Source: Escherichia coli
Lineage (GTDB): Bacteria > Pseudomonadota > Gammaproteobacteria > Enterobacterales > Enterobacteriaceae
Direction: 5' to 3' (one strand)
Length of the DNA stretch: 64,000 nt
Assembly (NCBI RefSeq): GCF_024223415.1
Contig: NZ_CP100500.1
Part shown: piece by piece, positions 50,981-52,087 of the stretch
Position numbering within the stretch: the stretch's first letter is position 1
Layout of the letters: each line of letters begins with the position of its first letter
The notes under the pieces: generated by a model
Database searches by the model: none
What the model was told of the DNA's origin: nothing
What the model saw: the letters and a program-made list of their open reading frames with translations, nothing else
Translations under genes and position numbers: made by a program

Positions 50981-52087
50981 TCAGAACTGATAAACCAGAC
51001 CAACAGCGACAATATCGTCGGTTGATACTCCTGTTCTTTCAGTGAATTTATTTTTATCGAGCATATTGATTTTGTAATCTATGTATGTAGACATATTTTT
51101 GTTGAAGTAATAAGAAGCCCCTACTTCAACGAATTTTTCAATATATCCGTCATCATGTTTTTTACTAATATCAGTACTGGATGAAAGGTTTTTTGCTTTA
51201 GAGTGGGTATAAGCAAGAGACGGGCGTAATCCAAAGTCGAACTGGTATTGTGCCACAACAGTGAAATCTTCGGTTTTATTCGCCACTCCTGAAATATTAT
51301 CACCATACGATATTGCACGGGTATTATTTGTTTCACCATAACTGGCAGCCAGGTACAGATTATTTGCGTCATATTTTACCCCGGTGGCCCACTGTTCAGC
51401 TTTTTTCCCTTTACCAAGCTCAGCCTTTTTCTGATTTTTAGTACGATCAGCAGCGCCGTATGCTGCGACAAAACCAAATCCTTCATATTCATAGCTGACA
51501 GAGCCACCTACACCCTCTCCGTTTGAAGTATCTGGTTTATCCTTGCGTTCATTTTTTCCCAGATACTGAATTGCAAAGCTAAGCCCATCGACCAGTCCAA
51601 AAAAGTCAGTGTTGCGGTATGTGGCAACACCGCCTACACGACCAACGAAGAAGTTATCCTTTTGCGCTGCGGTAGGTCCAAACTCCGGGAAGACGTCAGT
51701 GTAGCTTAATGCGTCGTACACCACGCCGTAGTTACGACCATAATCAAGAGAGCCAGCATCTGCAAGCTTCAGACCAGCGTATGCCAGGCGAGTCTTGTTT
51801 CCAGTTTGAGCTCCATCCCCTTCAGGGTTGTTCCCCTGGAAATTATATTCCCACTGACCAAAACCAGTAATATAATTATTTATTTGGGTTTCACCTCTGA
51901 ATCCAAGGCGTGCGTAAGTCTGATCTCCGTTTTGGTCCTTATCAGAAGAAAAATAATGTAAACCAACTGCTTTACCGTATAAATCCACTTTGTTTGCATC
52001 TTTATTGTATATTTATGCTGCATTTGAAGACGTTGCCAGAAATACTGATGCTGCTACAGCAGAAAGTGCCACTGTTAAATTTTTCAT
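50981..52087 (-). pseudogene. nmpC: OmpC/NmpC-family porin gene with in-frame TAA at codon 25 (signal-peptidase junction)
   Basis: Reverse-complement translation from the ATG at 52087..52085 gives [66 protein letters not shown]... and ends ...[12 protein letters not shown], the porin C-terminal signature. The stop is TAA at 52015..52013, where orthologous porins have Glu. Confidence 0.75.

Follow-up and report, generated by a model that had tools for sequence, protein, structure and literature searches.

A probable strain-specific null allele of an OmpF-like prophage porin gene in Escherichia coli

The prophage and its porin gene

The window analyzed here, a stretch of 64,000 nucleotides from contig NZ_CP100500.1, is part of the Escherichia coli chromosome, with araFGH at positions 1–6000 (99.8% identity), and contains a lambdoid prophage that starts with an integrase gene (36672–37985) adjoining a DUF72 (yecE-type) gene. 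The prophage carries a CI-type repressor gene (42450–43145), DnaC-like and DnaB-like replication genes (46792–49067) followed by a DUF968 gene, an antiterminator Q gene on the + strand (50365–50802; Phage_antitermQ, E = 5.9e-53), a lysis cassette on the same strand (53255–55182, with a holin at 53255–53527, a lysozyme at 54185–54718, and Rz at 54700–55182), and large head-region open reading frames (58052–63311) whose matches in related prophages are annotated as terminase, portal, and S49 peptidase. Convergent with Q, a porin pseudogene of 368 codons plus a TGA stop lies on the − strand at 50981–52087, its frame broken only at codon 25. The initial annotation had likened this position, with Q on one side, the lysis genes on the other, and the porin antisense to both, to that of nmpC in the DLP12 prophage, and the two layouts are indeed identical.

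Once codon 25 is restored, the protein matches the Porin_1 profile (Pfam PF00267, E = 1.8e-125) over residues 29–368, corresponding to positions 1–337 of the 337 in the profile, and the OmpF chains of the PDB (E = 8.7e-151, best match 3hw9); the frame is therefore no chance open reading frame. The NCBIfam models for OmpF, OmpC, and PhoE all match the repaired protein, with OmpF on top. The first 23 codons (52019–52087, − strand; MKNLTVALSAVAASVFLATSSNA) encode an NmpC-like signal peptide that aligns with those of OmpF, OmpC, PhoE, and NmpC, as does the cleavage motif TSSNA|AEIYNK, with small residues at −3 and −1. Residue 1 of the mature OmpF chain aligns to residue 24 of the window porin, and cleavage is thus predicted after Ala23 by OmpF homology and the −3/−1 rule. 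The C-terminus (...VAVGLVYQF) has the aromatic end (YQF) needed for outer-membrane assembly. From its ~70% identity to solved OmpF structures, the repaired protein would be expected to form a 16-stranded trimeric β-barrel with an L3 constriction loop, whose motif reads PEFGP instead of PEFGG.

The initial annotation had called the gene an nmpC-like porin, a description that suits its position, signal peptide, C-terminus, and 3′ flank and fails for the barrel. Overall identity is 69.6% to OmpF, 63.5% to NmpC, 59.5% to OmpC, and 54.0% to PhoE. In 40-residue windows, NmpC is the nearer match over the signal-peptide region (77% vs 52% for OmpF) and OmpF over the central barrel (70–83% vs 42–75% for NmpC), and the last ~50 residues are again NmpC-/OmpC-like. 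The score against the OmpF equivalog model (NCBIfam NF007446) is 540.4 bits, below the cut-off of 583, which makes the protein OmpF-like by sequence but not an OmpF ortholog. Since its barrel is OmpF-like, even if below the equivalog cut-off, it is not an NmpC ortholog either, and the gene is best described as a mosaic, with an OmpF-like barrel in an nmpC-type cassette.

The signals for expression are undamaged. A Shine-Dalgarno sequence (GAGG, 52095–52098, − strand) is intact 7 nt before the ATG, and a perfect CRP-type palindrome, TGTGA-N6-TCACA, lies ~115 nt upstream of the ATG at 52197–52212. This pattern occurs three times in the window against 0.13 expected, the other two matches being at 853–868 (araFGH region) and 9660–9675. 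The GF60-type allele of the porin gene keeps both half-sites with a changed spacer, and the palindrome is a candidate activator site of the porin promoter, with a putative regulatory role.

Several other elements surround the gene. Two prophage tRNA genes (52686–52839, + strand) lie on the 5′ side of the porin gene and run in the late direction, one with a CAU anticodon (tRNA-Ile in RefSeq relatives) and the other a weak "Lys" tRNA with anticodon UUU (52763–52839), which scores 31 bits on the Rfam tRNA model and has T-arm mismatches. In strain ECCNB12-2 this position is taken by a well-formed tRNA-Arg (aligned anticodon TCT) with about a dozen base differences, and the window "Lys" tRNA seems to be a divergent or decaying relative whose anticodon has changed. 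In the interval from the porin gene to the tRNAs, a block conserved in DLP12 (52478–52560, + strand) contains a promoter-like TTTACG-16-TATCAT and, after it, a short GC hairpin that leads into a T run (CCGCAGCCAGGCGGTTTTTT); it could be the late promoter and first terminator for Q action, which would leave the porin gene outside the late operon. A 125-residue open reading frame (phrog_1853) lies antisense between holin and lysozyme (53684–54061, − strand), and RefSeq relatives carry it as a pseudogene marked incomplete or frameshifted.

The premature stop codon and its ancestral state

Codon 25, at 52013–52015 on the − strand, reads TAA in place of GAA; the coding strand has T for G, equivalent to C>A at 52015 on the + strand. 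Both the frame and the stop bear out the initial annotation, which had proposed that a single GAA>TAA change disables a prophage porin precursor gene; the comparison with orthologous prophage porins that it had called for was run, and the related copies read GAA at this codon. The annotation had also placed the stop exactly at the signal-peptide cleavage junction. The stop does lie near the end of the signal peptide, but it sits one codon past the predicted SNA|AE site and replaces mature residue 2. We attach no statistical weight or special meaning to this position, because ~114 of the 368 porin codons are one substitution away from a stop. Phase variation was likewise rejected as the mechanism, as the site has no repeat tract.

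GAA was found at codon 25 in 14 related copies from other genomes, IMG/VR, and one metagenome, and the mutated base is G in L001–L003, L006, L007, L009, L016–L022, L024, and L025. Glu also occupies this position in the more distant GF60-type allele (L004) and in OmpF, OmpC, PhoE, and NmpC. Nine copies (L006, L016, L017, L019–L022, L024 over its aligned part, and L025) differ from the window porin gene only at the stop base. Among 5,426 complete E. coli genomes, four carry the gene, three at >99% identity and one at 83.5%; all four have GAA at codon 25 and an annotated intact "porin". Pattern scans recovered two IMG/VR contigs and one metagenome contig, each with G at the stop base. Scanning the GTDB species representatives for the 35-nt site, its mutated base set to N, gave no match, an uninformative outcome because that set has one genome per species.

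Sister prophages were gathered by means of the window's DnaB-like protein, giving ten loci of the same prophage type. In seven of these, the porin gene equals that of the window apart from G at the stop base; L018 has this G and two further differences, L023 carries the GF60-type allele, and the L024 porin matches only from nt 43 of the gene. The porin is intact in all eight sister prophages in which it can be read. The closest one, L025, differs from the window at two nucleotides in 11.7 kb (47470 and 52015) with no indels, and L019 at four in 13.4 kb. The change at 47470 (+ strand), the only other difference from L025, is nonsynonymous (E227K) and falls in the DnaC/IstB-like replication gene. 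The TAA is therefore derived, having arisen by G>T among nearly clonal copies, and it is very recent, given the near-identical sister prophages and the lack of any other damage to the gene.

Consequences of the stop and competing explanations

Very probably, the window carries a true null allele produced by one recent G>T change, that is, an ordinary strain-specific porin pseudogene. The lambdoid prophage, integrated beside yecE, bears the porin as an accessory ("moron") gene between Q and the late/lysis region, on the strand opposite to theirs, and in the window lineage a transversion replaced the Glu25 codon GAA by TAA. Ribosomes that start at the ATG, behind its intact ribosome-binding site, would then stop at 24 residues, having made the signal peptide and a single further Ala, a product presumably too short for export or barrel formation. 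As no downstream start supplies an export signal and the window encodes no suppressor tRNA, no porin would be made. The initial annotation had pointed to an in-frame ATG at 51988 as the next start; the codon at 51988–51986 is in fact GTG (codon 34), and the first in-frame ATG after the stop is near the C-terminus (FNKNMST). The residual 335-codon frame opened by this GTG (50981–51988, − strand) has neither a signal peptide nor a recognizable ribosome-binding site, a GGAG-like motif being absent from the sequence upstream of it (AATAAAGATGCAAACAAA).

The null allele is compatible with a further, unlikely reading, in which the locus now acts as an RNA gene and the porin transcript is the precursor of an IpeX-like 3′ RNA repressing OmpC and OmpF. 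The porin 3′ flank (50803–50980, − strand) aligns with, and is apparently homologous to, the nmpC–quuD intergenic region of DLP12, exactly the region to which Castillo-Keller reportedly mapped ipeX in 2006. IpeX is a small RNA of DLP12 and PA-2 that represses both porins (PMC12197685, PMC5069750, PMC8065619). In the window, two conserved hairpins with a few compensatory changes directly follow the stop codon, and an intrinsic terminator has its stem at 50837–50821, followed by a T run, making the flank a candidate IpeX-like RNA. Against this, the fold comes from just three distinct sequences, and an Rfam search of 49500–54500 at a permissive E-value returned the two tRNAs only, with no IpeX-like or other family. 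The early stop also exposes ~1 kb of untranslated mRNA and may cause Rho-dependent polarity that lowers the 3′ output. The stop might thus have uncoupled two functions, the porin being lost, the promoter, CRP-type site, and 3′ flank being kept, and the locus either serves as precursor of an IpeX-like RNA or has that RNA silenced by Rho-dependent polarity, a scheme to which we give a slim chance.

The initial annotation had seen in the nonsense allele and in K-12 nmpC::IS5 two outcomes of recurrent selection against expression of the phage-borne porin, an explanation that we consider unlikely. Porins are receptors for phages and colicins and entry routes for antibiotics. The annotation was right that nmpC of K-12 is split by IS5, NmpC is unexpressed in many E. 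coli strains owing to an insertion element (PMC3333887), and ISKpn26, of the IS5 family, is inserted at TTAG ~148 nt upstream of the ATG of the same porin in E. coli ECCNB12-2. The bulk of the gene's record argues the other way. Besides the four complete genomes and eight sister prophages with intact copies, >750 contigs in the porin protein cluster carry an intact gene: the identical intact protein occurs on 551 contigs and other full-length alleles on >200, against a single contig for the truncated form. The dN/dS values (0.19 vs the GF60-type sister allele, 0.17 vs NmpC) indicate long-term purifying selection, and full-length porin genes are found in 42 sequenced phages.

Two apparent extra disruptions proved to be artifacts. 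The 359-residue porin call in L024 (GCA_964252025.1) results from an Illumina Nextera adapter assembled into the 5′ end of the gene, and the 352-residue P0010 is truncated by a contig end. In L024 (~10380–10510; contig CAXULO010000001.1, 3.3 Mb), the Nextera P7 adapter and mosaic end (CAAGCAGAAGACGGCATACGAGAT...GTCTCGTGGGCTCGGAGATGTGTATAAGAGACAG) follow a poly-T run and replace the porin 5′ end and promoter-proximal region, mimicking a gene disruption. The ISKpn26 element of ECCNB12-2 (L003 5484–6464, NZ_CP033635.1), the sole other hit close to the gene, lies at about window position 52235, just outside the CRP-type palindrome, upstream of an intact porin gene, and recalls the IS5 in K-12 nmpC.

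A sequencing or consensus error, with GAA and an intact porin gene in the real genome, is quite improbable. It would account for a single-base difference from otherwise identical sister prophages and for the extreme rarity of the allele (one truncated contig vs 551 intact). However, a second public assembly, GCA_900482235.1 (contig UDHK01000011.1), has a porin gene 100% identical to that of the window, TAA included, and contains the residual open reading frame verbatim as SRA09280.1, annotated "outer membrane protein F". It is another consensus sequence, with a different local structure and a 10-SNP patch relative to the window at 52202–52436 whose bases are those found upstream of the GF60-type allele; the same TAA in it makes a random consensus error unlikely. 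The absence of indels and the single other difference from L025 in 11.7 kb also indicate high local assembly quality. The private DnaC-like K227 substitution, present in the window and in GCA_900482235.1 alike, places both in one lineage; we regard the second assembly as good, not fully independent evidence for a genuine TAA allele, as it may come from the same strain. K227 is also present in Logan assemblies of ERR3437215, SRR19977205, and SRR19977217, whose contigs end at window position 49327, and thus serves as a lineage marker.

The region in GCA_900482235.1 (L008 and L026, UDHK01000011.1 record 2067–36113), the sole further assembly with the TAA allele, is a composite in which three Q modules follow one another and the porin gene occurs twice, an extra prophage segment carrying the second, intact porin gene between two copies of an 85-residue gene. 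The order is Q, intact GF60-type porin; 85-aa gene, DUF968, Q, TAA porin; then holin, 125-aa gene, DUF968, Q, lipocalin and onward, and the region equivalent to window 48964–49766 is duplicated. Either two prophages have recombined in tandem here or the region is misassembled.

Finally, a leaky stop that still yields a functional porin by UAA readthrough or suppression, or by reinitiation at GTG 51988, is scarcely credible: the ribosome-binding site, ATG, promoter region, and entire downstream frame are undamaged and the UUU-anticodon tRNA encoded 0.7 kb away is near-cognate to UAA, but that tRNA is the poorly scoring one with the mismatched T arm, the only two tRNAs of the 64-kb window have anticodons CAU and UUU and neither has UUA, the GTG-started product would lack a signal peptide and a Shine-Dalgarno sequence, and UAA is the most efficient E. 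coli stop.

The preferred reading is thus the null allele, and the locus should be labeled a porin pseudogene in place of the "outer membrane protein F" of 335 residues that one public record lists. Its lineage would lack one accessory porin that sister strains have, which could slightly alter sensitivity to porin-dependent phages, colicins, and antibiotics. We picture the event as sporadic loss of a dispensable accessory gene, confined to one lineage and perhaps neutral, or mildly advantageous under phage, colicin, or antibiotic pressure. The TAA allele is a further instance of a well-known event, the loss of a prophage accessory porin; such sporadic loss is already known, and the allele lends no weight to the idea of a general pressure and says nothing general about selection on the porin type. 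The type itself, in which the signal peptide, C-terminus, and slot are of the nmpC kind and the barrel is OmpF-like, is common in E. coli drafts (>750 contigs); we found no characterization of it, and it may merit study in its own right.

Comparison with known porins

Lambdoid coliphages such as ev207, 2G7b, and Perceval carry porins (OmpD, NmpC, "outer membrane porin") as full-length accessory genes of temperate phages, ~60% identical to the window protein. All 25 listed phage matches span residues 23–368 (94%) of the query in a single piece, and the OmpF-like allele was absent from all 50,697 phage records searched. With OmpF, the window porin has in common the mature N-terminus and the C-terminal ...YQF; it differs in being prophage-borne rather than at the ompF locus, and in its signal peptide and last ~50 residues.

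The closest parallel in gene arrangement is nmpC of DLP12 in K-12, or lc of phage PA-2, which occupies the same slot on the opposite strand between the Q antiterminator and the lysis genes, so that the DLP12 order quuD, nmpC, essD/rrrD/rzpD corresponds to Q, porin (reverse), lysis in the window. The likeness extends to the signal peptide (MKNLTVALSAVAASV vs MKKLTVAISAVAASV), to a similar C-terminus, and to an alignable 3′ flank, whereas the proximal promoter region of DLP12 is not alignable with that of the window porin. Both genes are pseudogenes in the strain at hand, K-12 nmpC by an IS5 insertion near its 3′ end and the window porin by a point nonsense mutation at codon 25.
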